Below are positions 3,461 through 42,771 of a stretch of 64,000 bases of DNA, piece after piece. Position 1 is the stretch's first letter; each line of letters begins with the position of its first letter. Position numbers and translations under genes: made by a program. The notes beneath the pieces were generated by a model that saw nothing but the letters and a program-made list of their open reading frames with translations, was not told where the DNA came from and did not search any database. The stretch spans positions 2,321 through 66,320 of the forward strand of contig JBAYVE010000001.1 in the NCBI GenBank assembly GCA_041674765.1. Reading direction: 5' to 3'. Source of the stretch: Patescibacteria group bacterium (GTDB taxonomy: Bacteria; Patescibacteriota; UBA1384; XYA2-FULL-43-10; 1-14-0-10-43-13).

Positions 3461-3478
3461 GACAGGGGAGTGCTCTCA

Positions 3479-5968: not shown

Positions 5969-5986
5969 TTATTATCTTCATAAACA

Positions 5987-6340: not shown

Positions 6341-6365
6341 ATAAAAACTTAAAACTGGAGGAAAT

Positions 6366-6680
6366 ATGATCAGTCAACTAGTCGAAAAAGTAGTTGCAAG
6401 CTATAACACCAACAATGTCGCGGTGACCCCACTTTCTAGCAATCTTACCCTTACCAATTTACTGGATAAGGTTGTTCCGTGGGTAGCTATCATCGCAGGC
6501 ACATTAGCCTTCTTCTTTCTTGTCTACTCCGGCTTCCTGTATCTGACGGCCAACGGAAATCCAGACGCTGCGAAAAAAGGTCAGGCGGGTATTATCAACG
6601 CCATCATCGGCTTGGTCATCATCTTCTTGGCCTGGGGTATCACTACTGCGATCGTAAATCTGCTAGGTGGTAAAAGCTAG
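6366..6680 (+). CDS. Small two-TM hairpin membrane protein, paralog of 5987-6340; VirB2/TrbC-pilin-like topology is a hypothesis
   Basis: VAIIAGTLAFFFLVYSGFLYLTANGNPDAAKKGQAGIINAIIGLVIIFLAWGITTAIV; GGAGG SD 6 nt upstream of ATG. Confidence 0.45.
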   Translation: MISQLVEKVVASYNTNNVAVTPLSSNLTLTNLLDKVVPWVAIIAGTLAFFFLVYSGFLYLTANGNPDAAKKGQAGIINAIIGLVIIFLAWGITTAIVNLLGGKS

Positions 6681-8490: not shown

Positions 8491-8580
8491 GGTGAGATGC
8501 CCGAGAGGCTGATGGGGCTGGTCTCGAAAACCGGTAACCGGGAAACCGGTTCGTGGGTTCGAATCCCACTCTCACCGCCA
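8491..8580 (+). tRNA. tRNA-Ser (anticodon CGA), CCA-encoded
   Basis: Acceptor GGTGAGA/TCTCACC; anticodon arm CTGGT-CTCGAAA-ACCGG; long variable arm; T-arm GTGGG-TTCGAAT-CCCAC; discriminator G plus CCA. Closely resembles E. coli tRNA-Ser(CGA). Confidence 0.9.
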
Positions 8581-16173: not shown

Positions 16174-19100
16174 TTAGAACCCTACATGCGTCCAGACGGT
16201 CGTTTGGGTGTTGGCCCAGAGACCCTCTTTTGTTTTTGCTTTGCCCTCGCTATCAAAGCCAAGGCAGATGCCGTTGACAGCCAAAGCGTCTTTGCCAAGG
16301 CGTTGCTGGCAGATATTAGTCGAAACCATGTCATTCCAAAAAGTGACATCCTCTGAACGTCCAGTCATTATTTGTGTTGGGATAAGGGCTTCGCCGGTCG
16401 AATCGTTGTATTTACTGTCGTACTGAATAGAAAGGACGTCTCCGATCAATCTCCTGGCCTTATATTGAGCCGCTAGAATTTTCTTTTTTTCCAATGTCTT
16501 ATTCAGGGCTGATGAATGGGCGGCATTTCCGCCGAAAACGCCTATGCCGGAGATATCATTTTTTTGCATTGCAGAGGAAGGAATTGTAAAATTATTCACC
16601 GGTGTATCAAGAAGGGATAAAGGATCACCCGACAAATTTATGTTTTGGTTTCCAGAAGATCTGCCGCTAAGTTTATCCCAGAAACTAGAAGGAGGAGAAG
16701 AGTCCTTATAAGGGTAATATCCATCAACAGAGCACCAATACTCAACACGGTAAGTAGAGAAGAGATTGATGGCCAGAAAAGTCAGGAGTGTTATAGCGAT
16801 TGTTACCGGATCGACCATCGGAATTATCCAGGCGCCAGCGATAGCATGGGCTGCAATAGCGATACTGGCATATGCAGCGGTGCTTACTAACACCATCAGA
16901 CTACCTGGCACAAGATTTAAGTCCTCTTCCCAGCCCGAGATCGTTTCGCCAAGGTACTTTTCAACTAGATAATCAATCGTCATTTGAACAATAATCTGGA
17001 AGGCTGCAGCTCGAAGGGCTTTGGCATTATCAACTTTGATTTGCTCGACCGTTTCTGCGGCCTGGGCATTCTCCAGATTTGTTTGGAATCTTTGTACCTG
17101 GCCGGCCATGCCGGCGTTTACTGCCTCGTCATATAGCCGTTGGGCTTCTTGGACATTTTCGGTTGCAGTTTGAAGAGACTTTTGGGCGCTTCGAAGAGCC
17201 TGATTCGCTTTATAAGCGTCGATACCTGACTTCGCAAGTCTAAAGGATGTGCCTTCTGAGACACCGAGAGCCCTGTCAGCCCAATTAAATACTCTTCCGA
17301 CGCCCCAATTCACAATAGCCTGTCCGAGCGTTGGAACAGATGCTCCGCCGATAGTTTGATTGGCATTGCCCTGAATTCCTTCGAAGCTGAAGGAATTAAT
17401 ACCCCAGTCATTGGTTGAAAGTCCGACTAAAATTCCCTTGGCCATATCGGGAGTGATTGAGAAGCGAAAAATCTTCTCAAAGCCTTTAGCCATATAATTC
17501 GCAAAATATTGAAAAGACTGACCGTTGTTTACCTTGATTAGAGTCTCTAAGGCAGCCATATTGTTGCCTTGGATCATACTGCTAGCATAAACCAGAATAT
17601 CGCCCCACTCCTGAACATTCTTTACGGCGTCAAATTTGACGCCAAATAAGTGACCGTTTGTCACTCCTCGTTTGACATATTTGACGATAGCAGCAGTCTT
17701 GATTTCTCCATTGCCTTTTATAATTGCCTCTGCAAAGCCAGGATAAATATTTGTGTCCAGCTTCCAAAGTCCGATATCCAGAGCTCGGTATTCGAGAATC
17801 TCAATAGCACGGTTTTTGGCTGATCCATTGACATCTTGGACGTCTGCGGCGTTAGCTCTTGAAGGATCGTTTAGAGTGTTAAGTTTCCTCTCCAAAGGTT
17901 CTACTCTAATCGCCTGTTCATCTTGAATACACGAATTAATCTTATGTTGTTGCTCATACCTATCCGTACACGAGTTTTTAATCGAAGTATTTTCCCTATT
18001 TATCTGAGTTTGGAGATCGACTTTTGCCTGTTCATACTTTTCAGGGGTGTAGTCATACTGTCTTTCGACGGTGGCTTGCACACTTTCAACCGGTGATTTG
18101 AAAGCATCTACCTGACCGAGACAATCAATGCCTTTTGCAAAATCATTGCCGCCCGTCTTTGCGCATTCCGGAGCCCCCGGAGCGTACTCAGTTACCTCGG
18201 GATTGGCCGAGTTACCAGTAGCATCCTTGTAGGCTGCTAGTTTTTGAGCGCTTTTGGTAGATAGACCATAAATTGAGTTACGGATCATCTCATATGTGAT
18301 AAAAAACTCTGCCGGGATAGGAGTCTTTGTATCAACGCCATCGATTTTTTTGATTGCATAATTGGAGGTCAGTGCCATAGTAATAACGCTGATCGCTCTG
18401 TTGCTATCTCGGCCAAAGAGATCTTTCAAATCAGCGGTTGGGACATCAACGCCGATAAAAACACCGCCGATTGTTAAATTGGCAATCTTTTTATGCAGCT
18501 GTTCTATCGCTGCGTTTTGGAGCCAAAGCCGGGCCCGATCTGCCAAGACTTCATTTTTTGGAATTGTACCTTTATCGATATCCTGTTTTTGGGCAATCGA
18601 TCTTCTGGCCGTGATTTTGCATTCTGTCTCTTGTGCATTTAGAGCGTTGATTTGCAGTACGGCATCATCTCTGTCTGCTACGGCATTTTCATATTCATCT
18701 GAACCGACAACGGTCTTGGATATCTCTTTTTCTGCTCCCGACTTGATCAGCGCCAGTCTAAGTTGCTCATCTGCATAAGTGGCCCGACACTGATCATCGG
18801 CACTTTTTACATCAGTTGGCAGAAGGGCTTTATAAATTCCGCTAAAAGATGCTTGGCTGGTGCTATTTAGATCGGCCTGTTCATCAAGCTTGGCTGCTAT
18901 GACTCCCATCATCGTTGAATAGGCGGTATCAGGATTCTCGATTATACTTAAAATTGTGGTTTGCGGAATGCTCAATTTATCTGCAAGTTTATATTTGAAT
19001 AAATTAGTCAAACCGTCGAAGAGCAAGGCATAATTCTTATAATCAGGGTTACTACTCTCTCCAGATATAGAGAATGTTGGCGCAGTAAAGATTGCCCTGA

Positions 19101-22100
19101 GGGCAGTCACAGTTTTCTTCGCGCCTTCTTCCTGTTCCACACTTAGATCAAAAATGCCGCACAGACGATCAACAGATACATCAAGGATGCGGTTTTTTAT
19201 AAGGGAATTTCCGGCTTCTTCTATATATTCCGAAGGTGTTATCTTGCCGTAGAGAAGCTGATAGGTGCCGCCGGCCTTTAAAGAAAAAGTATTGTCAAGC
19301 TGAGCGATAAAGCGGATATACGCAGAGACTCGTGCATTCTGAGTAATATCATTGCTATCGGTAGTGCTGGGTAAAATAGTCAAAGCATCAGTTATATTTA
19401 TTGTTAGCTCATTCTGAAGCTCAGAAAGCGCATCAAAAGCATCATTACTAAGCATTGGCGTGCCCTGAACATATTTCTGCAAGCGAAGAAGTTGATAAGA
19501 GATATCCGAATTCTTAATAAGAGCATACTGTTCGCCCATAATACGGGACATCTTCCCCTCATCCTTCAAAGCCCAGAGAAAAGGAATTTTGAAAGCAGCG
19601 GCAAAGTTTATCGGCTTTACATTTCTAATGATTTCTTCAATATCGTCTCCATGAAAGGTTCCGCGAGGAATGCCAAGTGTTTCTTCAATCTTGGCCTGGC
19701 CGATATTTGAGATAAAGCTATCAATAGTTTTTCCTTTAATCGGGACATAATCTAGTCCAAAGAGCCCGCCCAAGAAAGTGCCGCCGGCTTGGGCAAATGC
19801 ACAATCTCTGGCATCGGTTGTGAGAGCAGTATAAATTAGATAAGTTGTACCAGTTTTTAGTTCCATCTCCTGATCAAGATAACCGGAAGCAATCCGACCG
19901 GCAGATGAATAGTCGCCATTCAAAAGATCAAACATATCCCCGGCATCAAAAAGGTCCGGATCGACGGAAAAGGGGAGATTATCAAACAATTTGTAAGTAA
20001 AGATTTTGGCGGCTTCTTTCTCTCCGACCAATTGTTTATAGTTGGCTACTGAATTTTTAAGATGATTCCTCACAAAAAGTTTTTCTAGCAAGGTAATCGG
20101 AAGGCCAGTACTCCTATAAATCTCATTAATGACGATATTACTTGTATTTGCCTCTCCAAACGCGTATTGCATAGAGGGATCGTTTACAAAATTCTCTAAA
20201 TTGGAGTGAAAAATCTCGAAATCCCAACCAGGGAAAGCTCTACTTAGGCCATAAGAAATTTCATATAGAATACTAATGATTTGCTGCTCTTTGTGATTAT
20301 TTGCATAGTTTTGAGCTTCCTCTCTGCTTTCAAAACAGTGCCGGCCTTCCTTATCGTAATAACAGAACGAATTGTTCTGTAAGGTCGTCTCATTTACGGA
20401 GAATCCTTCTTTTTGGGTGTAGATAACTTTACAGCTGCTCTCTTTGTTATCATCGGCATACGGATTTGCATTGATGTAATCTACGAGCCTATCACTACCG
20501 TACTCATCTGCTTCGCTGGGCAGAAGTTCTCCGTTGAGCATCTGGATATACTTCTCCAAGGCGTTTTTGCTGATTTTTAATATTGAAGCCTCAATCAAAT
20601 TCTTCTGTTTGTTGGTTAGACTGGCCGATGTCAAGGTTTTCTCTTCAGTAAATAGAGATTTTGTGGAACCTTTTAGAACATCAAAATTTTTATCTGCCTT
20701 CTCAGCAGTTGAGTTGGCTTCGCTCCATATTCCAGAATTTCCACTCTTCAAGGCCTCATAACTGCCCATCGGCAAGCCCATACGGAACAACAAATCATTT
20801 TCTGGTGTTCTGATATTATCGCCAAATTTTCTATTGGAGATATTCTCAACGATATCATCCAGATCGTTTTCCTTCGTTAGCAAGCCGTTCTGGTCTTTGA
20901 GCTTTGATTGAAAGTCTTGTTTCCAACGAGTTGTTGCCGCATCGACAAATTTTTTAAATTGGTCGGGGTTATCCTTCTTTAATTTACGGAAATAATCAAC
21001 CGTTAATCTCTCTCTGGTTTGGGATAGCCGCTTAAAGAATTCATCAAATTTACTGAGTTTTACCGTGTCGCCGAAATACGCTGATAATATTTCAGGCCCT
21101 GCCCATCTCATCAAAGCTTCAAAATCTTTCTTGAAGTCAGGCGGGGTCTTGGATATGGAGGCGCCCTGAAAGTAGAAGAAAGGCATATTATAATGTTCCT
21201 CGATTCTTGCTTGACCGATCGCTTGCATAAAGGCATCCTGACCGGTGACTCCTCTTTTTTCAAAGTTCTCGACAAAATAAATTAGGGAGTTGCTGGGAAG
21301 ACCCAATTTAGCCTCGGCGGTGTTGGCTCCGAGGGTGACAAACAGATCAGACACACCAATTTTTCCGGCGATGAAGTTAAAAATAATCTTTGCTATTTGA
21401 AAGGTAGTCAATTTTTTACTTTTTCGCCGTCCATCGCCAGAATCAGTGTTTTGGGTGGAATCGAGGCCTGGCTTTATCTGATTTATGGTTAATAAATCAG
21501 AGGGAATTTCTTTGCCTGCCATGATCTCGCTGATAGCTCTGATCAGTTCGTTTACGTCAGTGATTAGAATGTTTACTCGGGCAGCCTTCTCATCATATTC
21601 ACTGGTTTTCTTCATCTCATACACCTGCTTCAGCGCCAGAAGATTTTTCTGGAGGTCGGCGAGATCGGTAGCAATTACACTAGCCGAATTAATAATCCCC
21701 TGAAGCTTTGAGAGATCGCTATCGTTCTTTAAAAGATCCCTCAAAGAACTCATAGTTTTTTCAACCTTGTCAGAAATCTCACGTATCTCAACATCATCAG
21801 ATTTTAGAGCTTCCCATTCGCTGTTGATCTTACTTTGTAGCTCATAGACCTTAAGAACTCTAGCTAAGTAGAAGCCAAGTTCCTTGTTGTTGGTTGAGAG
21901 TTCCGGATCTAGATTAAGGAGATCAATTTTGGTTTTATCTTCATCATCCAATAATTTGTTGGCCAGTCCGTAATAAAGCAATTTTGAGCCGATTCGTTCA
22001 AATACATTCTCAGCATTTGCGTTAGCATATCCCATCATAAGAAAAAGATCGAAGTCTTCCAAACCGGCTGTTTTAGCTTTTGTTTTTGGGATATTAAAAT

Positions 22101-24717
22101 CTTGAGAATAATCTTTACTTTGAGCCTCGCTTGAATCCTGAGTTTTATATTGGATCCGGAAATTTACGGTCTGACTGAGCGCACAAATACTTTGTTGTCG
22201 CTTCTTTTCAATCTCGTCACTGATCTCAATATTTCCGGCATCTGTGTGAATCGTAATATTAATCTGTTCGGCCGGACGTTGGCAGGCATCTTTGGCAGTA
22301 ACTTTGGCTAAATTACCTCGAAGCCACTCTCTAAAGGTTAGATATCCCAAGTCGCCAGGATTGTATTCCACCTCCTGGCCATTTTCGATGGCAAATATCT
22401 TATCAATAGTTTCACCTTCGTTTAGGAACTTTGTACTGTCTAGATGAGTGGAATCATCTCCGAGCCGCCGTGCCAGCGTGTAGATGCCGATAGTTTGGTA
22501 GGCACTTCTACTGCCGGAAATAGCTTGTTCCCAAGTGCCGTCCGGTAGTTGATAGGCGCTATTCGTCATGGCGAAGTATTTCAAGCCGAAACTCGTGTCG
22601 TGCTTACGGGATTCCCCGACTATGTTGGCATATTCGGCCGCAGTGAAGGGCTTTGCGTGATCATTTGGATTGTGACCGTTCGTAAAAAGCGAAGTTGTCC
22701 CTGGCTGAATATGCAGGAGGTTATCAATATAGCCTGCATTGTTGCGGAAGATCTGAGTGCGGACAGAATTTAAGCTATCGTCTAAATCATTGAAAGACGT
22801 TGCATCCGTAGGCCAACTTTCCTTTGGCAAGTTTAACTTTGCTTCGATAATCTTGGCGCCGACGAGTGTCGCAAACATCGTACCGTCATTTAGATTATCA
22901 AGATCGCCGGCACGAAGATTCATCTCTGCTTCAACTTTGCGCTGTCCAATATTTTCCAGCAAACCGAAAAGATTATTCTTGACTTCCTTTCCGGCCTGGA
23001 AGTCATTATCAAGGGAACCAAAGGGAAGACCAAGCCTTTTTTCGATTGCAGATCTACCAATGACGTATTTGAGCGCTGTCAGGTCTGTAATATCGGTATC
23101 TGTCAGTATTTCTCTTGGAAGACCTAAATAGTCAGCCAGATAAACGCCTCCCAAATTTTTCAGAGTGTCCTCGACATCGCTACCATGAATAGAGTTTGTA
23201 GGCGAGTTAATGATATTAGCAAAGAGTGATTGGCCTAGAAGAGAAACAATATCATCCAAGCCGGCGCTTGAGAGATCGCCATCATAACTGCTAAATTGAG
23301 GATTCATGGCAGACAATAGATCGAGAGCGCTCTGAGATGCCATTTGTCTCATCGTCTCCATCAAATCCGTGCCAGTGTTTGTATTTGATCTCCGATAGCC
23401 ATCAGTTGTCTGCCATGCCAATTTGATCGGTTGGGCAGCCTGAGGTTCCTTGAAATCATGGCCGATCCTTCTTTTCTTTAGGACGGTGCAACGGACGTCG
23501 TCAATCTCGGTGATATCAACTGCCTGACCATTGTAGTGTGCAGAGATATTTCTGCTATTCTTCAGTGCCGGATCACTGTCCTCGAGAATCTCAGCGTTTT
23601 TCAAATCTTCATAATAAGCGTCATATTCCTGACCGTCTTTATCCTCGATTGTAAAACTATTGGCTTTTGCCCCGCATTCCGCGGCACTTTCATCTAAAGA
23701 GCAGACAACGTTTGAGTTGGTAATAGAACCGTTCAATTGTTCTCGTATCACATCTGACTCATTTGAATCGGTGTCGTTCTGGAGGATTCTGTTGGCCTTA
23801 ATTCTCCAATGACCTCCTCCTCCCTGGTCTTTTGGTGTGATTAAGTAAATCAGCGTCTTCAAAACTCTGATATCGATAGTCGGGGCCGAGATAGCATCAG
23901 AAATCAAATCGGCGACATATTCCTTATTGTTGTCACTTAATAGCTTGCCTTGGAGAGTATTGCTATCGATACCGGTGATGCACGAGAGAGTATTAAAATT
24001 GGCAAGATTTGTTTTGCCGGTTGCTTTAATTCGAGCCGCCTCCTCTTCCCAAAGGCCTTTCAACTTTTTATCACCGAAGTTTTTTTCCGCGAGAGAAACC
24101 AGATCCCTGAATTGCTGATGGTTGGAGATAGTCTCCGTCGCAGTAATACCGGTACCGTTTTGAAGCCAGGTTAGATATTGGAATTCATCTAGATATCTAG
24201 GACTCTCCTTGGTCTTTTCGGTATTTACCTGGTCATAAATCTTGTTCCGATTATCTGCAGGCAAAATTGCAAAAAGATTGAACAAGTCGTTATTGAAATC
24301 AGGCATAATATCGCTCATGCATTTGAGCTTTTTGAGAGATTCGATATCTTTCTTAGCTAAAACTAATCTTGCGTCAGAGGACGGTCCGAAAATGTCGTCC
24401 ACGGATAAAAGACTATCAGGATTGGTATAATAACTAATCAATTCCGCGAGCTGCTGATAGGCCTCTGACTGACCGAATTTTTTACAAACTTCTGAGTTAT
24501 TAGTTTCGGGCAGAGTGAACGTGAAATTTTGCTGAATGGTTATTGAATTAAGTCTGATCAGATCCGGTCTGTTCTGGGCAATATAGTCAGAAGAATCCAA
24601 ACTATCGATTTCGGTTGAAGGGATATCTGCAGCCTGTGCCCAGCTTAATAGAAAAGGATTTAGTATAATGACGACAGAGATAACTGCAAATAATAACTTT
24701 TGAAAGAATATCTTCAT
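16174..24717 (-). CDS. Giant (2847 aa) secreted surface protein, membrane-anchored by C-terminal TM helices; last gene of the T4SS-like operon; function unknown
   Basis: Single uninterrupted ORF. Signal peptide MKIFFQKLLFAVISVVIILNPFLLSWAQA. Recurrent motif (I/L)E(A/E)KLGLP at least 8 times. SAHYNGQAVDI motif (M15-peptidase-like SxHxxGxAxD). Coiled-coil segment. Hydrophobic helices SLMVLVSTAAYASIAIAAHAIAGAWIIPMV...ITLLTFLAINLF about 215 aa from the C-terminus. ATG overlaps the upstream gene stop (ATGA). Confidence 0.7.
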   Translation of the reverse strand: MKIFFQKLLFAVISVVIILNPFLLSWAQAADIPSTEIDSLDSSDYIAQNRPDLIRLNSITIQQNFTFTLPETNNSEVCKKFGQSEAYQQLAELISYYTNPDSLLSVDDIFGPSSDARLVLAKKDIESLKKLKCMSDIMPDFNNDLFNLFAILPADNRNKIYDQVNTEKTKESPRYLDEFQYLTWLQNGTGITATETISNHQQFRDLVSLAEKNFGDKKLKGLWEEEAARIKATGKTNLANFNTLSCITGIDSNTLQGKLLSDNNKEYVADLISDAISAPTIDIRVLKTLIYLITPKDQGGGGHWRIKANRILQNDTDSNESDVIREQLNGSITNSNVVCSLDESAAECGAKANSFTIEDKDGQEYDAYYEDLKNAEILEDSDPALKNSRNISAHYNGQAVDITEIDDVRCTVLKKRRIGHDFKEPQAAQPIKLAWQTTDGYRRSNTNTGTDLMETMRQMASQSALDLLSAMNPQFSSYDGDLSSAGLDDIVSLLGQSLFANIINSPTNSIHGSDVEDTLKNLGGVYLADYLGLPREILTDTDITDLTALKYVIGRSAIEKRLGLPFGSLDNDFQAGKEVKNNLFGLLENIGQRKVEAEMNLRAGDLDNLNDGTMFATLVGAKIIEAKLNLPKESWPTDATSFNDLDDSLNSVRTQIFRNNAGYIDNLLHIQPGTTSLFTNGHNPNDHAKPFTAAEYANIVGESRKHDTSFGLKYFAMTNSAYQLPDGTWEQAISGSRSAYQTIGIYTLARRLGDDSTHLDSTKFLNEGETIDKIFAIENGQEVEYNPGDLGYLTFREWLRGNLAKVTAKDACQRPAEQINITIHTDAGNIEISDEIEKKRQQSICALSQTVNFRIQYKTQDSSEAQSKDYSQDFNIPKTKAKTAGLEDFDLFLMMGYANANAENVFERIGSKLLYYGLANKLLDDEDKTKIDLLNLDPELSTNNKELGFYLARVLKVYELQSKINSEWEALKSDDVEIREISDKVEKTMSSLRDLLKNDSDLSKLQGIINSASVIATDLADLQKNLLALKQVYEMKKTSEYDEKAARVNILITDVNELIRAISEIMAGKEIPSDLLTINQIKPGLDSTQNTDSGDGRRKSKKLTTFQIAKIIFNFIAGKIGVSDLFVTLGANTAEAKLGLPSNSLIYFVENFEKRGVTGQDAFMQAIGQARIEEHYNMPFFYFQGASISKTPPDFKKDFEALMRWAGPEILSAYFGDTVKLSKFDEFFKRLSQTRERLTVDYFRKLKKDNPDQFKKFVDAATTRWKQDFQSKLKDQNGLLTKENDLDDIVENISNRKFGDNIRTPENDLLFRMGLPMGSYEALKSGNSGIWSEANSTAEKADKNFDVLKGSTKSLFTEEKTLTSASLTNKQKNLIEASILKISKNALEKYIQMLNGELLPSEADEYGSDRLVDYINANPYADDNKESSCKVIYTQKEGFSVNETTLQNNSFCYYDKEGRHCFESREEAQNYANNHKEQQIISILYEISYGLSRAFPGWDFEIFHSNLENFVNDPSMQYAFGEANTSNIVINEIYRSTGLPITLLEKLFVRNHLKNSVANYKQLVGEKEAAKIFTYKLFDNLPFSVDPDLFDAGDMFDLLNGDYSSAGRIASGYLDQEMELKTGTTYLIYTALTTDARDCAFAQAGGTFLGGLFGLDYVPIKGKTIDSFISNIGQAKIEETLGIPRGTFHGDDIEEIIRNVKPINFAAAFKIPFLWALKDEGKMSRIMGEQYALIKNSDISYQLLRLQKYVQGTPMLSNDAFDALSELQNELTINITDALTILPSTTDSNDITQNARVSAYIRFIAQLDNTFSLKAGGTYQLLYGKITPSEYIEEAGNSLIKNRILDVSVDRLCGIFDLSVEQEEGAKKTVTALRAIFTAPTFSISGESSNPDYKNYALLFDGLTNLFKYKLADKLSIPQTTILSIIENPDTAYSTMMGVIAAKLDEQADLNSTSQASFSGIYKALLPTDVKSADDQCRATYADEQLRLALIKSGAEKEISKTVVGSDEYENAVADRDDAVLQINALNAQETECKITARRSIAQKQDIDKGTIPKNEVLADRARLWLQNAAIEQLHKKIANLTIGGVFIGVDVPTADLKDLFGRDSNRAISVITMALTSNYAIKKIDGVDTKTPIPAEFFITYEMIRNSIYGLSTKSAQKLAAYKDATGNSANPEVTEYAPGAPECAKTGGNDFAKGIDCLGQVDAFKSPVESVQATVERQYDYTPEKYEQAKVDLQTQINRENTSIKNSCTDRYEQQHKINSCIQDEQAIRVEPLERKLNTLNDPSRANAADVQDVNGSAKNRAIEILEYRALDIGLWKLDTNIYPGFAEAIIKGNGEIKTAAIVKYVKRGVTNGHLFGVKFDAVKNVQEWGDILVYASSMIQGNNMAALETLIKVNNGQSFQYFANYMAKGFEKIFRFSITPDMAKGILVGLSTNDWGINSFSFEGIQGNANQTIGGASVPTLGQAIVNWGVGRVFNWADRALGVSEGTSFRLAKSGIDAYKANQALRSAQKSLQTATENVQEAQRLYDEAVNAGMAGQVQRFQTNLENAQAAETVEQIKVDNAKALRAAAFQIIVQMTIDYLVEKYLGETISGWEEDLNLVPGSLMVLVSTAAYASIAIAAHAIAGAWIIPMVDPVTIAITLLTFLAINLFSTYRVEYWCSVDGYYPYKDSSPPSSFWDKLSGRSSGNQNINLSGDPLSLLDTPVNNFTIPSSAMQKNDISGIGVFGGNAAHSSALNKTLEKKKILAAQYKARRLIGDVLSIQYDSKYNDSTGEALIPTQIMTGRSEDVTFWNDMVSTNICQQRLGKDALAVNGICLGFDSEGKAKTKEGLWANTQTTVWTHVGF

Positions 24718-26120
24718 TTTAGCGATAAAGCATACTTAATACGGGACCACAAATAATCGCCCCAATCCTTCGATTCGTTTTGATTATGGTCGATTTTATC
24801 TACTTCTGTGGTTGTTAGACAGACATTGCAGTAGCTCATTTCAATATGAAGCTGCGAATAATTGCCAATTTTTACTGTTTTTCCGATCGGCTTATTTAAG
24901 TCAGTAATCTTTTGTCCTTTTACTACAGAGGGATCAAAATTTGCGTACAAGAGGAGATAGTCACCGTTTTGGATAGCTATCTTCTTATGGCCCGTCCCAT
25001 CATCAGAAACATCAATGACCTCGCCGATCATACCGGGGTAGACGTTGTTACCTTCGGTGGTATACAAATCGACGCCGTCACATTTATTTTGGCCGAAGTA
25101 AATATAAGTTCCGTGACCCAGATCATCGCTCGGTGTAGTCGGTCGGAGTGGTGTTCCGGTGTGAAGTTCACTGTTTGTGCCGATGATTTTGGCCTTTTCA
25201 ATCGGATAATGTCCATTGATAGCAGGAATGCTATTATCTATTTTTTGTAGAACATTTTTTATAGCATCAAAAATTTCCTGACCTAACTCGACATTACCGG
25301 CAGCCGCTTGATTGACCTTTGTGAGAGCGCTATCGATCTCATTCTTGATATTTTGATCTGTCGTCTCCTCCTTTAGCTGAGTTAGTAAGAGCTGTAATTT
25401 TGTCGTTAGCTCTTTCTTTGATTGCTTTTGGATTTCAGGGTCTTTGACTGCGAGGAGTGTAGCCTCAATAACTGATTTATTATCAATCGGCATGGCGGGA
25501 GTAGTGGGAGTTTGGCCGCCGGCCCCACTCTTATAAAATCTAAGGGAGAAAGCCAGCATGCCGATGGCCATAGCCAGTATTACGACGACTAAAATGATAC
25601 TCCAGCTTCCGCCGAGGAGTCCGGCTATCCAGGCCCAGATTCTAACAATTGCAGCTACAAATCTTTTTGTTACTTTTTCTTCGAATTTTTGTTTTAAATC
25701 ATCAGCTATTCTTCTTGCTTTTCCGGCTCTAGCGTTTTGTTGATTAGTGTCTTCTCTAGAAGCATTTGGTTCTTGTCCTTGTTCAGGACCATTTTGGATG
25801 TTAGCCGCTCCCGTCTTTCGGGCGGTTCCCCCCTGATTGGCATATGGATCGGTTTTATCATCGCCAGGAAGAATCTGATCTGGAGAGATCTCGGGGTTGT
25901 CGGGTACCCTTTGCGGTAAAGGGGGCGGCTGTGATTCTTGTTCCCAAATCGGATCGTCAATCTCGCGGTTTAGAAAAGGATCGTCTTGAGCGCCAGGAAC
26001 TCCTTTGCCCTGATTGCGCAGACGTAAATATGAATCTCTAGCGCCCTCCGACTGAGACTTCATGTAGTCTTGTCGGTATTTGCGCATCTGTTTTTTGATA
26101 GATTGTAGTCTTTTATCCAA
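24714..26120 (-). CDS. Membrane-anchored protein with C-terminal M23/LytM-like peptidase domain (possibly degenerate)
   Basis: Basic cytoplasmic N-terminus; TM (WIAGLLGGSWSIILVVVILAMAIGML); C-terminal ...GTNSELHTGTP...VVKGQKITDLNKPIGKTVKIGNYSQLHIEM resembles the M23 core (…VKKGQ.V..GQ.IG..G.TG.STGPHLHFE). Confidence 0.45.
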   Translation of the reverse strand: MDKRLQSIKKQMRKYRQDYMKSQSEGARDSYLRLRNQGKGVPGAQDDPFLNREIDDPIWEQESQPPPLPQRVPDNPEISPDQILPGDDKTDPYANQGGTARKTGAANIQNGPEQGQEPNASREDTNQQNARAGKARRIADDLKQKFEEKVTKRFVAAIVRIWAWIAGLLGGSWSIILVVVILAMAIGMLAFSLRFYKSGAGGQTPTTPAMPIDNKSVIEATLLAVKDPEIQKQSKKELTTKLQLLLTQLKEETTDQNIKNEIDSALTKVNQAAAGNVELGQEIFDAIKNVLQKIDNSIPAINGHYPIEKAKIIGTNSELHTGTPLRPTTPSDDLGHGTYIYFGQNKCDGVDLYTTEGNNVYPGMIGEVIDVSDDGTGHKKIAIQNGDYLLLYANFDPSVVKGQKITDLNKPIGKTVKIGNYSQLHIEMSYCNVCLTTTEVDKIDHNQNESKDWGDYLWSRIKYALSLK

Positions 26121-26180: not shown

Positions 26181-27446
26181 TTATTCAACTTTGATCGCAA
26201 ATATTCCATCGCTTGTTTGATATAAAATCATCTTTTCATCATCAGAAATAAAGAGTGTATTTATAAATATTTTGCCGAAATCTCTAATAATAAACCCGGA
26301 ATTTTTTTTATTATCGGTGTCAAATTTGAAGATTGATTCGTTCTTTGTTTTCGAATCATAAGTAGCGATGACTACGTTTTTTGAATCCTTCTCCCATGCG
26401 GTTTTACTTATTTCTGCAAAAATGCCCAGTGTCCGTTTATCAGAGCCATCGATATTCATGATAGACAGAGCCGAAAAAACGGGGCTTTCGGGATCGCTCT
26501 GATATGTTCCATAAAGTATTTTGTTGCCGTTGGGAGAGAAAGAGGCATCCAATTGACCACCATTATCGGTCAAAGTTTTGAAAGTACGGGAGTAGGTGTT
26601 GAAAAGATATATTTTGTTCTTCGAACGATCGCTATTTCGCGGAATTATAAGCAGCCATTGCGAATCAGGAGACCACTTCAGAATCGGATTCTCGATGCCC
26701 CTCTCGGAAAAATTAGCAATTCTAGTTACCTCGGTATTGGCAATATTGGAAAAAACCAGCGATTTCTCTCCATTCGTTGCATAATAGTAGGCTATTTTGG
26801 AGTTATCAGGAGACCAAGCAACAGCTCCGACATCCTTGCCCCAAGGAAGTTCTGTTTGATTGACAAAGTCGTATTTTTTAAAGTCAAATATTGTCATCTC
26901 GCCGGCTTTTCTTAAAAGGGCCAATTCCTTTGTCGGCGACCAGATTATCTCTTTCACGCCGGTTAATCTAGCATCGGTAATCGGCGTATTCTTGATGATT
27001 TCAATAGTCCCATCCTCCGTCAGACCGACCTTTAGTTTGTAGAGAGTTTTCCCACCGTTCCCAAGGTAGTAGCCGTCGTTGAAATCACTTCCCTTGACGA
27101 TATATTCTGCGCCGTTGCTGATCTCGACCGGTTTCGGAGTAGTTTTCAACTCAAACAAAATCTGTTTCATGAACCCGCGTTTCAGAGAAAGAGTGGTATT
27201 CAATCCGACATAGCCATCGGCCTCGATTTTAACATTATGATTCTCCGGCGAAAGATTGAGGCGGAAAGTGCCGCTGCTGATCGATTGGACAGCCTTATCA
27301 TCAATTGTTAGCTCAGCTTCATAGGGAATGACTTTCAGCGTTACAAATGATCTCGAGAAAACCCATATTAGGGCAATTACGGCTAATATTGTTGCTAAAA
27401 TAGCGATATAAATGGAACGGCTTAATTTTTTTAATTCTACATTCAT
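26181..27446 (-). CDS. N-terminally anchored TolB-like beta-propeller protein (PD40/WD40-like repeats)
   Basis: N-terminal TM then repeated ...WSPD...KI(A/L)Y... units (IIWSPTKE, VAWSPDNSKIAYYY, LKWSPDSQWLLI, ASFSPNGNKILYG). Confidence 0.6.
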   Translation of the reverse strand: MNVELKKLSRSIYIAILATILAVIALIWVFSRSFVTLKVIPYEAELTIDDKAVQSISSGTFRLNLSPENHNVKIEADGYVGLNTTLSLKRGFMKQILFELKTTPKPVEISNGAEYIVKGSDFNDGYYLGNGGKTLYKLKVGLTEDGTIEIIKNTPITDARLTGVKEIIWSPTKELALLRKAGEMTIFDFKKYDFVNQTELPWGKDVGAVAWSPDNSKIAYYYATNGEKSLVFSNIANTEVTRIANFSERGIENPILKWSPDSQWLLIIPRNSDRSKNKIYLFNTYSRTFKTLTDNGGQLDASFSPNGNKILYGTYQSDPESPVFSALSIMNIDGSDKRTLGIFAEISKTAWEKDSKNVVIATYDSKTKNESIFKFDTDNKKNSGFIIRDFGKIFINTLFISDDEKMILYQTSDGIFAIKVE

Positions 27447-27479: not shown

Positions 27480-28691
27480 CTACCAGCGTCCTATGCCGCA
27501 ATTAGCACACTGTAAGTCTTTTAACGTGCGATGATGTTGAATCCTTATCTCATCATCACCGACATTTCCTTCGATTGTGACTAAATCAACTGGAGTGACA
27601 ACAAAGCCTACATGGTAACCGCTGTCGCTTGCCCTACTTGGTACCATGAAGACGTCTCCTGCCTGTATTTCTGATAAGCTTTTCGGCTTAAACCAAGTGT
27701 GATTTTTTATGAAATAATCGCGTAAATTCAGAGTTCTACCGATTTTTGCAACCTCAGGGTCATTGTATACTTGAGCCAAAATCCATGAGACAAAGTATGT
27801 GCACCATTGAGCACAGCCTTTGCCTGGAACATATTTAACGCAGTTTGCGCCTCCGGTCTTATAACCTTTTTTCCCGGCAGCCAATTCGTCTGTAGCCAAC
27901 TTAACTATCTCATTTCCTGTCTGATTGCCTACCGTTAGTTGGCCGTTGATTGTGCATCCTTCAGCTAACTCTGTAAAAGTTTTTCCGACGTCTTGCAGAT
28001 AATCAAGTGCAATCTGTGCCCCACGGATTGCAGTAATACCTTGTTTGGACCAAAGGGGATATATCTTTGACCCATAATTACTCTGATCTTGATATTCTTT
28101 AATCTTGTCTGCGGACATAGGATAGCCATCTGCAACCCAAAGCTTTGCCACATTTGCCCCGCGATTATAAGCCAAAGCTACTGCTTGAATAGCATGAACA
28201 TCGGAAAAATTTGTAATACCAAGACTCTCTGCCTTATTCTTAATTATTTTAGCTGCCGGCCCAACTGATTTTGCAAAGTCTTTAGCGTCTTCTTTGGAAA
28301 GTCCGTATGCTTCTCTGCTGGCGCTATCCAGTTGGAATGGTCCGCAACCGTTTACTACGCAGGCAAAGTCTGATCCCATTGGTTTCCATTGCCTACCATT
28401 TTCCTTCCAGTAAATTGCTGCAAGCATCGCCGGATGAATGCCGGCTTCTTTTGCAGCCTGTGTCATCAGGGTCTGCTCCGATATGCCCACTTTTGCCCAA
28501 GTGTTACAGGAGACATCGCCGGATGAATAATTACTAGCTGCAGGATCGCCCTGTGCCTTCATTATATTCATGAATCCAGCACCGCCGACAGCGGCAGCTA
28601 CGATGGTGCCGCCAAGAATAAGTATGCTTGAAAAAATCAGCGGTCCGACCAGAACTGCGGCTTTATATTTTTTTAAAAATATCAATTTCAT
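27480..28691 (-). CDS. Bifunctional peptidoglycan hydrolase: lytic transglycosylase (SLT)-like domain plus C-terminal CHAP domain; VirB1-equivalent of Gram-positive T4SS (TraG/PrgK-like architecture)
   Basis: N-terminal TM; LAAIYWKENGRQWKPMGSDFACVVNGCGPFQL (SLT-like catalytic Glu region); C-terminal CAQWCTYFVSWILAQV...GDVFMV...GYHVGFVV...TIEGNVGDDEI (CHAP Cys/His). Confidence 0.6.
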   Translation of the reverse strand: MKLIFLKKYKAAVLVGPLIFSSILILGGTIVAAAVGGAGFMNIMKAQGDPAASNYSSGDVSCNTWAKVGISEQTLMTQAAKEAGIHPAMLAAIYWKENGRQWKPMGSDFACVVNGCGPFQLDSASREAYGLSKEDAKDFAKSVGPAAKIIKNKAESLGITNFSDVHAIQAVALAYNRGANVAKLWVADGYPMSADKIKEYQDQSNYGSKIYPLWSKQGITAIRGAQIALDYLQDVGKTFTELAEGCTINGQLTVGNQTGNEIVKLATDELAAGKKGYKTGGANCVKYVPGKGCAQWCTYFVSWILAQVYNDPEVAKIGRTLNLRDYFIKNHTWFKPKSLSEIQAGDVFMVPSRASDSGYHVGFVVTPVDLVTIEGNVGDDEIRIQHHRTLKDLQCANCGIGRW

Positions 28692-28695: not shown

Positions 28696-30516
28696 TTATT
28701 GTTGTCCTAGTATTTGTTTGGGGTCGGTAGTGATAATTTGATCTTCCGTGTACGAAGCTACTGCTTTGAAAGCAACGTGATTTAATCCTGCAAAGAAAAG
28801 ACCCTCTCCGACGTCTGACTCCAAAAGTAAATACTTTTCACCTTCAGTCAGGTTAAAAGTCTCAGCCACAAGGTCAACAGAAGCTGTTGATTGCTTCATC
28901 AATACCTGCATCGAGGAGTTGGCGACCACGGCCTTTCCATAACGGCTGGACAGAAAATCTTCTACATCCTGACTTATTATCGTCAATCCCAGATAGTATT
29001 TTCTGGCTCTTTTGGCCAAACCGTGAAGGAATTTCGCCGAGTCCTCGTATTGCATCATCCACCAAGCTTCATCGACGATCATCAGGCGCTTTTTCATCTC
29101 CATCCGAACTTTGGTCCAGATATAATCAAGAACAGTGTAAATGGCGATTGGCCGAAGCTGTTCATCCAGATCCCGGACAGAGAAAACAACAAATCCGGGT
29201 TTCAAGGTAAAATTCGTTCGTTGATTGTAAAGATTGGCAAAAGTGCCCTCGGTAAATTTCGACAGCCTGGCACGCAGAGACTCCGTGCCCTGTAGATTTG
29301 AGAGAATGTTGTAAAAATCTTGGAGTAGGGGAGGCTCGTTCTTCTGACTCTCAGGGTCAAAGGTAATATCCTTTAGGGCATATGTTTCAAAGAGCGCTTT
29401 GTCCACCACAGCATCTTCTTCCGGCGAAAGTCCGCCAACCATCAGATTTATCAACCCATGCAAAGAGGAGATGTTTGACCGCAACACATCTTCGCCCGAT
29501 TCTTTATCATTGGTCGGTAGATCAAAAGGGTTGATTCTTTTATCAGAATTCAAGGAAATATTTAGATAGCTACCATTGACGGCGTCACTCAGCGTCTTGT
29601 ATTCGTTTTCAGGATCTATCACGATGACGTCAGCTCCCAGCATCAGATAACGGATTGCTTCCAATTTGACGAAATAAGATTTACCTGAGCCTGATTTGGC
29701 GAACACAACGGAATTGGCATTCTCCAAATGAAAACGGTCAAAGATGATCAGCGAATTGTTGTGCCGGTTGATACCGTATAGGACGCCTTCATCCTGAGTC
29801 AATTCTGAGGAGGTAAAGGGGAAAGTCGACGAGAGAGAACCGGTATCCAAATTCCGCAAAACATTTACCTTGTCGGTGAATAAAGGCAGTGTCGCTTGAA
29901 AACCTTGCTCCATCTGGAAAACTGTTTCCTTCGTGTAGATAAGAAGACCTCCCAGGGTGGATTCCAGCTGATCACAGAGCGTCCGTAATTCCTCTTGAGA
30001 CCTGGCATATAAAGTAAAGTAGAGGCCGAATTGGAAGAGCCGAACCTCGCCTCTTTGAAGAACGTCTCGGAGGGATTCTACATCGCCCAGAGCAGTCTCC
30101 ATCTCAGGATCCCGAGGCTTACCCTTTTCATGATCGATTGACATTGTAGATTCGAGTTTACCAACCTGGGTTTTGAGCTGATACATCACCTCCTTGGATT
30201 CCAAAGGGTGAATGTACATCCCAATGTCCATGTTCATGTCATAGTTGATTACAGGAGAAAGCCAGTTCGTCTCCAAATATCGAGGGTAAGTAAAAACAAA
30301 GAGAGTTTTGATATAAAAGGATCCCACTTGAATATAGTTTGGGGTAACCACATAAGAAGCAGGCGCAATAATATCCCGGATCGATGCCACTCCCTGGCTT
30401 GGCACGTCCTTCTTTTCCTTGGTATCGCGAACATAAGCAACTTCGCGCTCGGAAATATTATTCTGGGCTAGTTGACGTGCATCTACATTTTTAGTTGTTT
30501 GGTCTAAATCAGCCAT
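28696..30516 (-). CDS. virB4: VirB4/TrbE/CagE-family T4SS ATPase (606 aa from ATG 30516; the longer ORF-track version to 30732 is an out-of-frame artefact)
   Basis: Walker A FAKSGSGKSYF; Walker B RLMIVDEAWWMM; VirB4-type middle region YVVTPNYIQVGSFYIKTLFVFTYPRYLETNWLSPVI; GGAG SD 14 nt upstream of ATG 30516; 8-nt overlap (ATGGCTGA) with the upstream gene. Confidence 0.85.
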   Translation of the reverse strand: MADLDQTTKNVDARQLAQNNISEREVAYVRDTKEKKDVPSQGVASIRDIIAPASYVVTPNYIQVGSFYIKTLFVFTYPRYLETNWLSPVINYDMNMDIGMYIHPLESKEVMYQLKTQVGKLESTMSIDHEKGKPRDPEMETALGDVESLRDVLQRGEVRLFQFGLYFTLYARSQEELRTLCDQLESTLGGLLIYTKETVFQMEQGFQATLPLFTDKVNVLRNLDTGSLSSTFPFTSSELTQDEGVLYGINRHNNSLIIFDRFHLENANSVVFAKSGSGKSYFVKLEAIRYLMLGADVIVIDPENEYKTLSDAVNGSYLNISLNSDKRINPFDLPTNDKESGEDVLRSNISSLHGLINLMVGGLSPEEDAVVDKALFETYALKDITFDPESQKNEPPLLQDFYNILSNLQGTESLRARLSKFTEGTFANLYNQRTNFTLKPGFVVFSVRDLDEQLRPIAIYTVLDYIWTKVRMEMKKRLMIVDEAWWMMQYEDSAKFLHGLAKRARKYYLGLTIISQDVEDFLSSRYGKAVVANSSMQVLMKQSTASVDLVAETFNLTEGEKYLLLESDVGEGLFFAGLNHVAFKAVASYTEDQIITTDPKQILGQQ

Positions 30517-31495
30517 TTGATGGTTCTGTCTCCTGTTTAGTTTCCTCTTGGCCCTTTTCGTCATCTGCGACCGGCACGGCCGGTCCTGTTTTCCCGGGAG
30601 TTGGACTGTCCGGGGTATCTTTGGTTTGTGAGCTCGAAGTTTGTCCGTTGCTACTTTTGCTTGACTCGGCTTGAGCCGCTTCTGCCTTGAGTCTCTCTTC
30701 CTGTTCAATCTTTCGCTGTGCCAAAACAACATTGGAATTGTCGATCATATCTAATTCTTCCTGGCTTTTTTTGCCGTCATTTTCAGTCTCTGCAGCATCA
30801 GCTACTTTCATTTTCTTCTTAGTCTCGCTCGCAGCGATAATAATGGGGGAGGCGAGTGAAACAGCATCTTCAATTCGCTCCTTTGAAGCTTCATCAGGAT
30901 TGTAGACCTGATAAAACAATTCTATTAACTGTTCAGTCGATAATTGGAAGCAGTGAAGGCCCATGCTTCCCAAGCCTTGGGCTACTATTGCGCCCCTTTC
31001 CATTATTTTTTTTGCATTGGTCTCAAATTCCTGGTCTGTAATTTTGATATGGTCGTAAATGGTCGCTTTTTTCGGTTTAAATAACTTATCAAATAAACCT
31101 GATTGTTGAATTGCCATCGGCTGGTAGGAGACAACAACGTAAAAATTCTTTTTCATTATGTTGGCCATCGTAATCAGTTCGCCAATGAAGTCTATGTAGT
31201 CGTCGGTCTGTGCCTTCAAGAGTTCGTTCCCCTGGCTTTTGGCTATATCGGTCAGTTTCTTCAGGTATGGCGCCAAGTCGAGCTGTTTTGATCTGATAAT
31301 TATTTCGATTGGGAAATGGAGTGAGTTGAGAAAACCCTGATATTGAAAAACAATCGAATTTTGTTCAGCCTCGCTTTTTAGGTTAAAATTGGCGGCTGCG
31401 ACCTGTAAGACTATCCGGTAGGAACCGTCTTTTAGGATGATAATGCCGTCTTTTATTCCGGCGATATCGATAGCTTGTTGAGTGGAAAACACCAT
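30509..31495 (-). CDS. VirB4 N-terminal-domain-like protein with about 110-aa acidic/Ser/Gln-rich disordered tail; encoded separately from and translationally coupled to the VirB4 ATPase
   Basis: LKDGSYRIVLQVAAANFNLKSEAEQNSIVFQYQGFLNSLHFPIEIIIRSK parallels the extreme N-terminus of A. tumefaciens VirB4 (LEDGSIMSIARIDGVAFELEE...FNTLLRNIADDHVSIYAHLVRH; from memory); tail ...ETENDGKKSQEELDM...AEAAQAESSKSSNGQTSSSQTKDTPDSPTPGKTG...DDEKGQEETKQETEPSNG. Confidence 0.5.
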   Translation of the reverse strand: MVFSTQQAIDIAGIKDGIIILKDGSYRIVLQVAAANFNLKSEAEQNSIVFQYQGFLNSLHFPIEIIIRSKQLDLAPYLKKLTDIAKSQGNELLKAQTDDYIDFIGELITMANIMKKNFYVVVSYQPMAIQQSGLFDKLFKPKKATIYDHIKITDQEFETNAKKIMERGAIVAQGLGSMGLHCFQLSTEQLIELFYQVYNPDEASKERIEDAVSLASPIIIAASETKKKMKVADAAETENDGKKSQEELDMIDNSNVVLAQRKIEQEERLKAEAAQAESSKSSNGQTSSSQTKDTPDSPTPGKTGPAVPVADDEKGQEETKQETEPSNG

Positions 31496-31518
31496 AATAT
31501 AAACTTTAAAATAATTTG

Positions 31519-31932
31519 TTATTGTTTAATCAGAACTTTTCCCGTGTCATACTTCTTCGCTATATTGCTTATTTCATCATGACTGACATTCTTGTGCTGA
31601 ACCGTCGTTCCTTTCTTCTCGACATGATATATTTCTATCCTCAGATCGGAATCATCACCTTGGTGCCAGACCCTTTTTTTCGGTTGGGATACATAGGCAA
31701 TAGCGGCTTTAAAGAAATCCAAGAAAGGGCGCTCATTGATCTTGATGAAATCCAAGCAGATGACAAATACCGCAATCGGTGTGATCAAAATATAGGAAAA
31801 CGGCTTGGGGATAGCAGAATAAATGGCATATGAACAGCCAAAGCCAATTACGGCATAGATAAACTGAACCATTGTTAATGGCCCGAGGACTCGATCTTTC
31901 ATATCGATATTTTGCGGAACTTTATACCTCAA
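31519..31932 (-). CDS. Small two-TM membrane protein, VirB3/PrgI-like (position and topology)
   Basis: 137 aa; MKDRVLGPLTMVQFIYAVIGFGCSYAIYSAIPKPFSYILITPIAVFVICLDFI hairpin; lies immediately upstream of the VirB4-N gene, as VirB3 does in T4SS loci. Confidence 0.4.
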   Translation of the reverse strand: MRYKVPQNIDMKDRVLGPLTMVQFIYAVIGFGCSYAIYSAIPKPFSYILITPIAVFVICLDFIKINERPFLDFFKAAIAYVSQPKKRVWHQGDDSDLRIEIYHVEKKGTTVQHKNVSHDEISNIAKKYDTGKVLIKQ

Positions 31933-32022
31933 AAGCCCCTCCTAGGCCTAAGTTATGACTATAAAGTTAGTATAACAAAAAAAAGGAATGCAACAAAGAG
32001 GACGAAGCTTGGGCAAAGATTA

Positions 32023-32943: not shown

Positions 32944-32958
32944 ACAAATTTCTTTTTA

Positions 32959-42685: not shown

Positions 42686-42771
42686 ACAGATTTGTTTAAT
42701 GCTAAAGACTAAAATAAACGAAATAACGAAATTATCTTTTTAGTTGTTTGGTTTCTTTTAGTTTTTAGCGT

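Follow-up and report, generated by a model that had tools for sequence, protein, structure and literature searches.

What does a protein of 2847 residues do as the last product of a type IV secretion system (T4SS) operon beside a chromosomal origin? The question is raised by a gene on the reverse strand of a 64,000-nucleotide stretch of contig JBAYVE010000001.1 from a Patescibacteria group bacterium; we refer to this whole stretch as the window and number positions from its first letter. In the single genetically tractable Patescibacterium, epibiotic growth depends on the T4SS, the role of which has been described as completely unknown (PMC10633639; PMC11665869). We found that the giant protein has an export signal, an N-terminal head with an invariant H-x6-D element in a VanY/Hedgehog context, a hydrophobic anchor and a conserved tail, and that its gene keeps its place in the operon across the related loci. 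Tentatively, we read it as a Sec-exported, C-terminally anchored envelope stalk of the T4SS, the head of which would be directed at peptidoglycan.

An unannotated family of giant proteins

The gene runs without interruption over 2847 codons from 24717 down to 16174, in agreement with an earlier note on this DNA, made from the letters alone, which had described a single unbroken 8.5-kb frame. An identical protein, WC107_00110, is present in an NCBI metagenome-assembled genome (MAG) labelled 'Patescibacteria group bacterium', where it is annotated as hypothetical. The signal peptide that the earlier note had called clear was readily recognized: residues 1-29 are MKIFFQKLLFAVISVVIILNPFLLSWAQA, followed by AD, with a hydrophobic peak at residues 8-26, and an N-terminal hydrophobic h-region was present in 122 of 147 long family representatives. 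The description of the gene as non-repetitive at the gross level was also correct, as no DNA-level tandem or direct repeats of at least 30 bases were found in it, and all of the peptide strings quoted in that note were located at the positions given there. No paralogues of the head, the anchor, the tail or the motif turned up elsewhere in the window. Pfam scans of the whole protein and of ten 400-residue tiles returned only coiled-coil noise with no model at its cut-off, the PHROGs scan of the ten tiles gave no match, and the full-family profile had no significant match among the PDB sequences.

A word-indexed search revealed 29 proteins of 2012-3127 residues, most of which covered 90-100% of the query at 24-40% identity; these full-length relatives contained no Pfam domains, and one of them came from Candidatus Berkelbacteria. 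An exhaustive HMMER search was performed with the block of residues 225-470 against representatives of 50%-identity clusters. At least 195 representatives were matched at E<=0.001 (157 at E<=1e-10), nearly all of which were proteins of 1300-3300 residues with the block near the N-terminus. Conservation along the family alignment was highest at residues 250-750, where it peaked at residues 401-450, and was also high at residues 2301-2350 and 2751-2847. Hidden Markov models (HMMs) of the anchor region and of the tail matched 137 and 104 of the 164 retrieved family representatives, respectively, and the members of 1300-1700 residues were also matched (22 of 28 by the anchor HMM and 9 of 28 by the tail HMM). 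The family architecture consists of a signal peptide, an N-terminal head, a middle of very variable length, an anchor and a tail; the middle is the sole part that varies family-wide, and with it the total length, which ranges over 1.3-3.3 thousand residues.

When one genome from each GTDB species was scanned, 41 loci were confirmed, all in Patescibacteria MAGs labelled as Berkelbacteria, 'uncultured Candidatus Saccharibacteria' or Patescibacteria group. A tblastn search with the head gave no match in a plasmid collection or in 50,697 phage records. In the literature searched, no description of the family was found, and a 2025 survey of Patescibacterial T4SS genes reported no adhesin and mentioned no protein like those described here (PMC12102498). 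We class the family as a giant component, so far unannotated and confined to one lineage, of a secretion system that had been noted before.

The head domain and its probable relationship to Hedgehog and peptidase folds

The earlier note had placed an SxHxxGxAxD-type string near positions 23500-23550. We located it as NISAHYNGQAVDI at residues 390-402 (positions 23512-23550), within the most conserved block of the protein. The chance expectation of SxHxxGxAxD in a protein of such composition was 0.0007, with no occurrence in 2000 shuffles, and the exact motif was present in 120 of the 164 family representatives. The head is laid out as a helix (IDIRVLKTLIYL), a GGxGH loop, a strand (RIKANRI), a variable insert at residues ~321-388, the SxHxxGxAxD strand and a PIKLAWQT strand; the insert is missing in many members, which have a compact head of 115-150 residues. 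Among 29 homologues, D282, R284, G300, G302, H303, E320, H394, G397, D401, D406, C410, T411, W435 and Q436 were invariant. In a wider alignment of 65 sequences, D282, D401 and Q436 remained invariant, and R284, the GG pair, S392, H394 and A399 were at least 90% conserved. The many conserved polar residues would argue for a working ligand or metal site over a dead relic.

To the VanY, M15 and Hedgehog-type families, which belong to the Pfam clan Peptidase_MD, the head showed weak but repeated similarity. Each of the 65 head sequences was compared on its own with Pfam (E<=10); the families matched were VanY (14 sequences), Peptidase_M15_4 (9), DUF5715 (7), Extensin-like_C (7), Peptidase_M15_3 (3), Peptidase_M15_2 (2) and HH_signal (1), and unrelated families had one match each. 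The best single-member E-values, 0.0025-0.05, were short of the cut-offs; in the compact members, the weak alignments spanned 42-54 residues and took in the strand ahead of the motif. The 65-sequence head profile found nothing significant among all PDB sequences, and its 20 sub-threshold matches at E<=10 included 16 Sonic or Indian hedgehog N-domains and one VanY-type D-Ala-D-Ala carboxypeptidase (5hnm). The alignment with 5hnm, over profile positions 7-78, was collinear from the IDIR helix through the strand equivalent to SGYR to the motif. The region of the SGYR element gave weak collinear alignments of 42-72 positions to VanY, DUF5715, M15_2 and 5hnm (E-values of 0.003-1), covering IDIR...RIKVxRIxxGY. 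In an hhalign comparison with an M15_4 alignment from the VirB1 position of Candidate Phyla Radiation (CPR) genomes, the probability was 54%, rising to 71% with the template trimmed to the domain, over 18-19 columns only; relaxed settings gave no extension past the motif, and the DPMHF element of the CPR M15_4 proteins was not reached.

Downstream of the motif the resemblance ends. A check for the second His and Asp ligands, proposed in the earlier note, revealed no D/ExxH or HxH third-ligand or catalytic element downstream of the motif in any family member, and neither the close nor the wide family has a conserved His after D401. Because this downstream element was looked for and was absent, the giant protein is not an M15 member by the usual criteria. 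The AlphaFold model of residues 225-470 built with 29 sequences was unusable, with a predicted local distance difference test score (pLDDT) of 58. With 65 sequences including the compact homologues, the pLDDT was 71, with values below 50 in the motif loop; this model matched no DD-peptidase and no other known fold, the motif loop being too weak for a refutation. The earlier M15/Hedgehog idea was therefore retained in part: the motif, its place in the most conserved block and the weak VanY/Hedgehog matches stand, and the third ligand, a Pfam match at cut-off and a fold match are missing. We consider that the head is probably a strongly diverged relative of the VanY/Hedgehog fold, in which the N-terminal half and the H-x6-D strand persist and the remainder has been remodelled; that it still hydrolyses a substrate is possible but doubtful.

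A stronger version of this relationship would make the head a fully active M15-type zinc DD- or LD-peptidase and the protein chiefly a wall-degrading enzyme, opening peptidoglycan of the host or of the cell itself for the T4SS, with the rest as a mere tether. The exact SxHxxGxAxD motif together with further conserved polar residues suggests a working site over a decayed one, and H303, invariant in the close family, could be a third ligand from upstream. Additionally, the neighbouring genes encode wall hydrolases, the VirB1-like gene of locus L001 itself encodes an M15_4 peptidase, and an essential Hedgehog/DD-peptidase protein adjoins virB4 in the T4SS cluster of Southlakia epibionticum, which provides a precedent for this fold with a Patescibacterial T4SS. 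However, no member has the downstream element, H303 is replaced in many members, the profile-profile match covers so few columns, no fold-level match was obtained, and ~2400 further conserved residues are hard to square with a mere tether. Thus, we regard a fully active peptidase as unlikely. H303 was dropped as a universal third metal ligand, as it is not conserved in the wider family.

Conserved position at the end of a T4SS operon

The earlier note had called the giant gene the terminal gene of a T4SS-like operon. This is the case, and the position as last gene of the operon is conserved in all 25 informative related loci. The synteny counts were made on fetched loci that extended at least 7 kb upstream (n=25) or far enough downstream (n=15). 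VirB4 was upstream, on the same strand as the giant gene, in 25 of 25 loci and the beta-propeller gene in 24 of 25, compared with a convergent recF neighbour that was kept in 8 of 15 loci and lost in 7. The giant gene is therefore tied more tightly to the T4SS genes than to the origin. The gene order around it was kept down to ~25% protein identity, and its start is overlapped by 4 nt by the stop of the M23-like gene on the same strand.

The contigs of homologues P0018 and P0024 had the same gene order, with the Pfam labels TrbL_3, PrgI, TraC-like, P-loop_TraG, hydrolase (CHAP or Peptidase_M15_4) and beta-propeller, then the giant gene and then convergent recF-dnaN-dnaA; TrbL_3 was found only in the P0018 contig, as the P0024 locus begins downstream of that position, and the PrgI label was weak and present in one of two P0018 gene sets. 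The window itself lies at the chromosomal origin and contains rnpA, yidC, dnaA, dnaN, recF and a small DciA-like open reading frame (ORF). A relaxase-less T4SS resembling the mating-pair formation class FATA (MPF-FATA) has been described near dnaA in Patescibacteria, and the origin-proximal T4SS context of the giant gene matches this published picture (PMC12102498).

Synteny near the origin could also have another meaning. The protein may be a general envelope protein, acting in wall organisation, the surface layer or division, and its adjacency to the T4SS may merely come from origin-proximal synteny. The whole region from rnpA-yidC-dnaA-dnaN-recF to the T4SS is syntenic in many related MAGs, no homology of the giant protein to a named T4SS subunit was found via Pfam, PHROGs or PDB sequences, and the 2025 survey of the Patescibacterial T4SS listed no such component (PMC12102498). 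Nevertheless, the constant presence of VirB4 in loci that include losses of recF, the overlap of the start with the preceding stop and the persistence of the gene order at low identity make a general envelope protein improbable.

The LGLP motif, middle, anchor and tail

The earlier note had quoted eight strings as copies of a repeated LGLP signature, which we located at residues 530, 557, 624, 1134, 1172, 1311, 1535 and 1677. Starting from six copies, a profile refined by iteration across the 29 homologues converged on an 18-residue unit with the consensus NIGQAKIEdeLGLPRGSF. It recovered seven of the eight strings and added sites at residues 589-604 and 1608-1624; RSTGLPITLLEKL at 1535 was not found by the profile and was dropped as a copy, and the signature otherwise held as a motif recurring through the homologues. 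In the 29 homologues, 178 sites were found against 0 in shuffled sequences (domain E<=0.01), or 243 against 5 (E<=5), in a control that is not fully independent, since the profile was trained on the same family. Close homologues had 4-8 copies, and P0029, the most distant, had three. Nine sites occupied equivalent alignment positions, as a tandem quartet at residues 521-640, a pair at 1129-1183, a weaker single copy at 1304 and two more at 1608-1688. Judged from sequence, the motif is a real recurrent unit, and the spacing of the quartet suggests short helical-hairpin repeats. Wider family members had fewer copies (average 0.8-2), so the motif characterises the long subfamily and not the whole family.

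Residues ~950-1085 gave weak matches to designed helical bundles, the langerin neck and syntaxin, and to Pfam FlgK_D1 and coiled-coil models. A coiled-coil stretch near the C-terminus, noticed earlier, was found at residues 2523-2572 (positions 17002-17151), in a region with a conservation of 0.21 and an occupancy of 0.59 (residues 2501-2550). The C-terminal hydrophobic stretch, which the earlier note had put at ~16800-16960, lies at 16759-16911, and the tail after it comprises 194 residues instead of ~215. The signal peptide and the hydrophobic stretch at residues 2603-2653 support the idea of an exported protein with a C-terminal hydrophobic anchor. The anchor is ~50 residues long in the query and ~28 residues long with a central G-F-N-P turn in several homologues; its topology could be either a helical hairpin, with head and tail both outside, or a single span, with the tail inside.

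The tail cysteines C2803 and C2818 were lost together in P0029, and the head-insert cysteines C339 and C348 were lost together in P0016-P0023. Because the cysteines of each pair are lost together, they may form disulfides, which is weak evidence for an extracellular position of both ends. The last four codons of the gene (16177-16188, reverse strand) encode a free C-terminus, H-[IV]-G-[FY]-COOH, common to most family representatives. Exact C-terminal H-[IVAT]-[GS]-[FYW] was present in 90 of 147 long representatives and lay at most 6 residues from the end in 110 of 147; most of the remaining C-termini were close variants such as IHLRW or VHIQY. We know of no monoderm sorting signal that corresponds to this ending. 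No LPxTG signal was found at the C-terminus, the sole LPxTG-like string of the protein being LPETN at residue 69.

A proposed role in the cell envelope

Our preferred reading, the peptidoglycan-directed envelope stalk, can be stated as follows. The giant protein would be a conserved accessory part of a chromosomal, origin-proximal, Gram-positive-type (MPF-FATA-like) T4SS of a Berkelbacteria-related Patescibacterium. It would be exported by Sec and then held in the membrane by the C-terminal anchor and tail beside the secretion channel. The membrane-distal head, a presumed much diverged Hedgehog/DD-peptidase-fold module, would bind, and possibly cut, peptidoglycan stem peptides of the cell's own wall or of the host's. 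The long middle, which is probably helical and in which LGLP turn motifs recur, may form a stalk of lineage-specific length. Together with the presumably co-transcribed SLT/CHAP, beta-propeller and M23-like proteins, the giant protein would make up the wall-crossing, host-contact part of the machine, crossing or holding the wall at the contact site.

Several observations weigh against this reading. No Pfam model reached its gathering cut-off for the whole protein, the tiles or the single head sequences. The third-ligand or catalytic element is missing downstream of the motif, and H303, although invariant among the close homologues, gives way to Y, F, L, R or M in many wider members. Synteny within a single bacterial group can partly reflect shared ancestry. 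The helical, elongated form of the middle is suggested only by weak coiled-coil-type matches, and the topology of the anchor is ambiguous. Finally, VirB2-like pilins are encoded in the genome, and hence the giant protein is not needed as a pilus substitute. The idea that it stands in for a missing pilus was dropped, as VirB2-type pilin genes are present at 5987-6680 together with an 832-residue protein with a pilin-like C-terminus.

A bolder form of the envelope stalk would make the family a core structural T4SS element: a channel-side stalk bridging the gap between epibiont and host. Its lineage-specific length, 1.3-3.3 thousand residues, would fix how far apart the two cells lie, and its Hedgehog/VanY-like head would recognise the host wall, or open it, for the VirB2-type pilus. 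The conserved free C-terminus could then act in docking, or as a pseudo-substrate for a carboxylate-binding peptidase-like pocket. We regard this as an improbable, speculative extension. As a functional class, the adhesin or wall-active effector held at the cell surface that the earlier note had proposed is a reasonable candidate. An effector or toxin secreted or translocated into the host cell by the T4SS, which the wall-enzyme-like motif and the place at the end of a relaxase-less operon thought to export proteins might suggest (PMC10633639; PMC12102498), is very improbable for a family that is single-copy per locus and conserved end to end, with an N-terminal Sec signal, a conserved hydrophobic anchor, a conserved tail and no variable toxin-like C-terminus.

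On the envelope-stalk reading, the giant protein is a concrete candidate for the machine part in contact with the wall or the host in Berkelbacteria-like lineages, and the head offers a defined domain of ~130 residues suited to expression and testing. A sizeable family, of at least 195 50%-identity clusters, has been missed entirely by current domain libraries. These findings overturn no expectations; they offer a testable handle on the role of the Patescibacterial T4SS.

Features of the operon and the window

The features of the giant gene and of the T4SS operon are collected in Table 1.

Table 1. Coordinates of the giant gene, its parts and the T4SS operon in the window
Feature	Position	Strand	Basis or remark
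Whole giant gene, 2847 residues plus stop, ATG start	16174..24717	-	ORF call; identical NCBI MAG protein; 28 full-length homologues, 24-40% identity
Sec-type signal peptide, residues 1-29, predicted cleavage between AQA and AD	24631..24717	-	Sequence; h-region in relatives
Conserved N-terminal head domain, residues 272-446	23380..23904	-	Top conserved block; 195 cluster representatives; weak VanY/Hedgehog matches
SAHYNGQAVD, residues 392-401, H-x6-D motif of LAS / M15 / Hedgehog type	23515..23544	-	Sequence, family conservation
Tandem quartet of 18-residue motif G-x3-[IL]-E-x2-LGLP-x-GS-[LF], residues 517-640, spacing 29-37 residues	22798..23169	-	LGLP profile
Helical-bundle or coiled-coil-like segment, residues ~950-1085	21463..21870	-	Weak matches only
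Pair of LGLP-type motifs, residues 1124-1183	21169..21348	-	LGLP profile
Single weaker LGLP-type motif, residues 1299-1324	20746..20823	-	Matched in 9/29 homologues
Two LGLP-type motifs, residues 1608-1624 and 1671-1688	19642..19896	-	LGLP profile
Coiled-coil-like linker before anchor, residues 2523-2572	17002..17151	-	Sequence; variable length, poorly conserved
Hydrophobic membrane anchor, residues 2603-2653	16759..16911	-	Sequence; anchor HMM in 137/164
Conserved C-terminal tail, residues 2654-2847, 194 residues, ends THVGF-COOH	16177..16758	-	Alignment; tail HMM
Bitopic membrane protein, 468 residues, weak M23 (LytM) peptidase match	24714..26120	-	Adjoins giant gene upstream
Membrane-anchored beta-propeller (PD40/TolB-like) protein	26181..27446	-	Upstream in 24/25 informative loci
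VirB1-like wall hydrolase, 403 residues, weak SLT and CHAP	27480..28691	-	M15_4 protein instead in locus L001
VirB4 / TraG P-loop ATPase	28696..30732	-	Same strand, upstream in 25/25 informative loci
Rest of T4SS operon	30509..37718	-	Five further genes
TrsD/TraC-like gene	30509-31495	-	Rest of T4SS operon
PrgI/VirB3-like gene	31519-31932	-	Rest of T4SS operon
Polytopic 924-residue protein, VirB6 position	32959-35733	-	Rest of T4SS operon
orf306 and exported 664-residue protein	within 30509..37718	-	Rest of T4SS operon

Within the operon, the longest VirB4 ORF and the TrsD/TraC-like gene share 224 nt. As the first ~70 residues of this VirB4 ORF are highly basic and non-genic looking, the true start is probably an internal Met downstream of 30732. 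The hydrolase at the VirB1 position has SLT/CHAP domains in the window (27480-28691) and in the Berkelbacteria locus L003; in the P0018 genome (locus L001/L002, 5713-6879) its place is taken by a Peptidase_M15_4 protein that has the S-x-H-x-x-G-x-A-x-D and DPMHF elements in canonical form. From this swap between relatives, the wall-hydrolase modules at this position appear to be interchangeable. The beta-propeller protein (26181-27446) has a short N-terminal domain after the transmembrane segment that looks PEGA-type-like on visual inspection; in the S. epibionticum cluster, the corresponding position is held by SEML1_0005, a separate exported PEGA protein (PMC10633639). A Mur ligase and a FemAB-family peptidyl transferase are encoded near the operon (41357-43758, reverse strand), which implies peptidoglycan with an interpeptide bridge and bears on what the peptidase-like proteins of the operon might recognise.

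A VirB2-type pilin cluster was found at 3470-6680 on the forward strand, ~10 kb from the T4SS operon and on the other side of dnaA. It encodes two small T4SS_pilin proteins (6366-6680, E 5.6e-15; 5987-6340, E 1.3e-6) and the 832-residue protein (3470-5968), the C-terminal 50 residues of which weakly match the T4SS_pilin model with an E-value of 1.9e-4 that is short of the cut-off; it would be unusual for a pilin domain to be joined to ~770 residues of unknown sequence. A PilB/GspE-type T2SSE ATPase with an MshEN domain, a type IV pilus or competence motor, adjoins the cluster (6677-8314, reverse strand). The only tRNA in the window is a tRNA-Ser (CGA) at 8491-8580 on the forward strand. Just past the operon, after uppP and a PAP2 phosphatase, lies a tyrosine recombinase (Phage_integrase, XerC/D-like or integrase; 39983-41032, forward strand), and a 253-residue protein with an N-terminal Phd/YefM antitoxin domain is encoded at 46090-46851 on the reverse strand.

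Comparison with known systems

To place the giant protein, we compared it with phage, peptidase and T4SS proteins. Phage tape-measure proteins with lytic domains, such as T5 Pb2, are very long and largely helical, combine a LAS-type wall-peptidase motif with hydrophobic segments and vary in length with the structure that they serve. They differ from the giant protein in having no Sec signal and a reversed order of elements, and a tape-measure identity was rejected, as neither the PHROGs scan of the ten tiles nor the tblastn search of the 50,697 phage records gave a match.

The head resembles VanY/M15 peptidases and Hedgehog N-domains in that S-x-H-x-x-G-x-A-x-D-I with the first His and Asp ligands is present. 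The upstream D-x-R helix and the strand ending in G-Y align weakly, though collinearly, with VanY-type 5hnm (IDIR...SGYR). In contrast to these domains, the head has no downstream D/ExxH or HxH element, its C-terminal half consists of three short strands ending in PIKLAWQT, and a 70-residue variable insert splits it.

The nearest documented parallel, likened by its published description, is SEML1_0007 of the Saccharibacteria T4SS cluster of S. epibionticum, a protein of 1113 residues with an ECOD Hedgehog/DD-peptidase domain at residues 951-1105 (PMC10633639). SEML1_0007 and SEML1_0006, which has lysozyme and CHAP domains, are large, exported, encoded directly downstream of virB4 near recF-dnaN-dnaA, and essential for epibiotic growth (PMC10633639). 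Unlike in the giant protein, the peptidase domain of SEML1_0007 is C-terminal and recognisable by structure search, and the protein is 1113 residues in total.

The VirB1-like hydrolases PrgK of pCF10, TraG of pIP501 and TcpG of pCW3 are likewise membrane-anchored, extracytoplasmic and wall-directed, and are encoded inside MPF-FATA operons (PMC12102498). They differ in their size of 300-900 residues, N-terminal anchor and clear SLT, CHAP or LytM domains, and the VirB1-like role beside the giant gene is already filled by the 403-residue SLT/CHAP and 468-residue M23-like neighbours. PrgB-type adhesins are also large surface proteins of the Gram-positive T4SS class and are thought to mediate cell-cell contact, but the giant protein has no LPxTG signal, adhesin domain or other Pfam domain, and the 2025 survey found no PrgB homologues in Patescibacteria (PMC12102498). 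An LPxTG-anchored adhesin was rejected, as the C-terminus has the hydrophobic anchor and 194-residue tail without a sorting signal. Taken together, the giant protein would work most like the wall-directed accessory proteins and the surface proteins of the Gram-positive T4SS combined.

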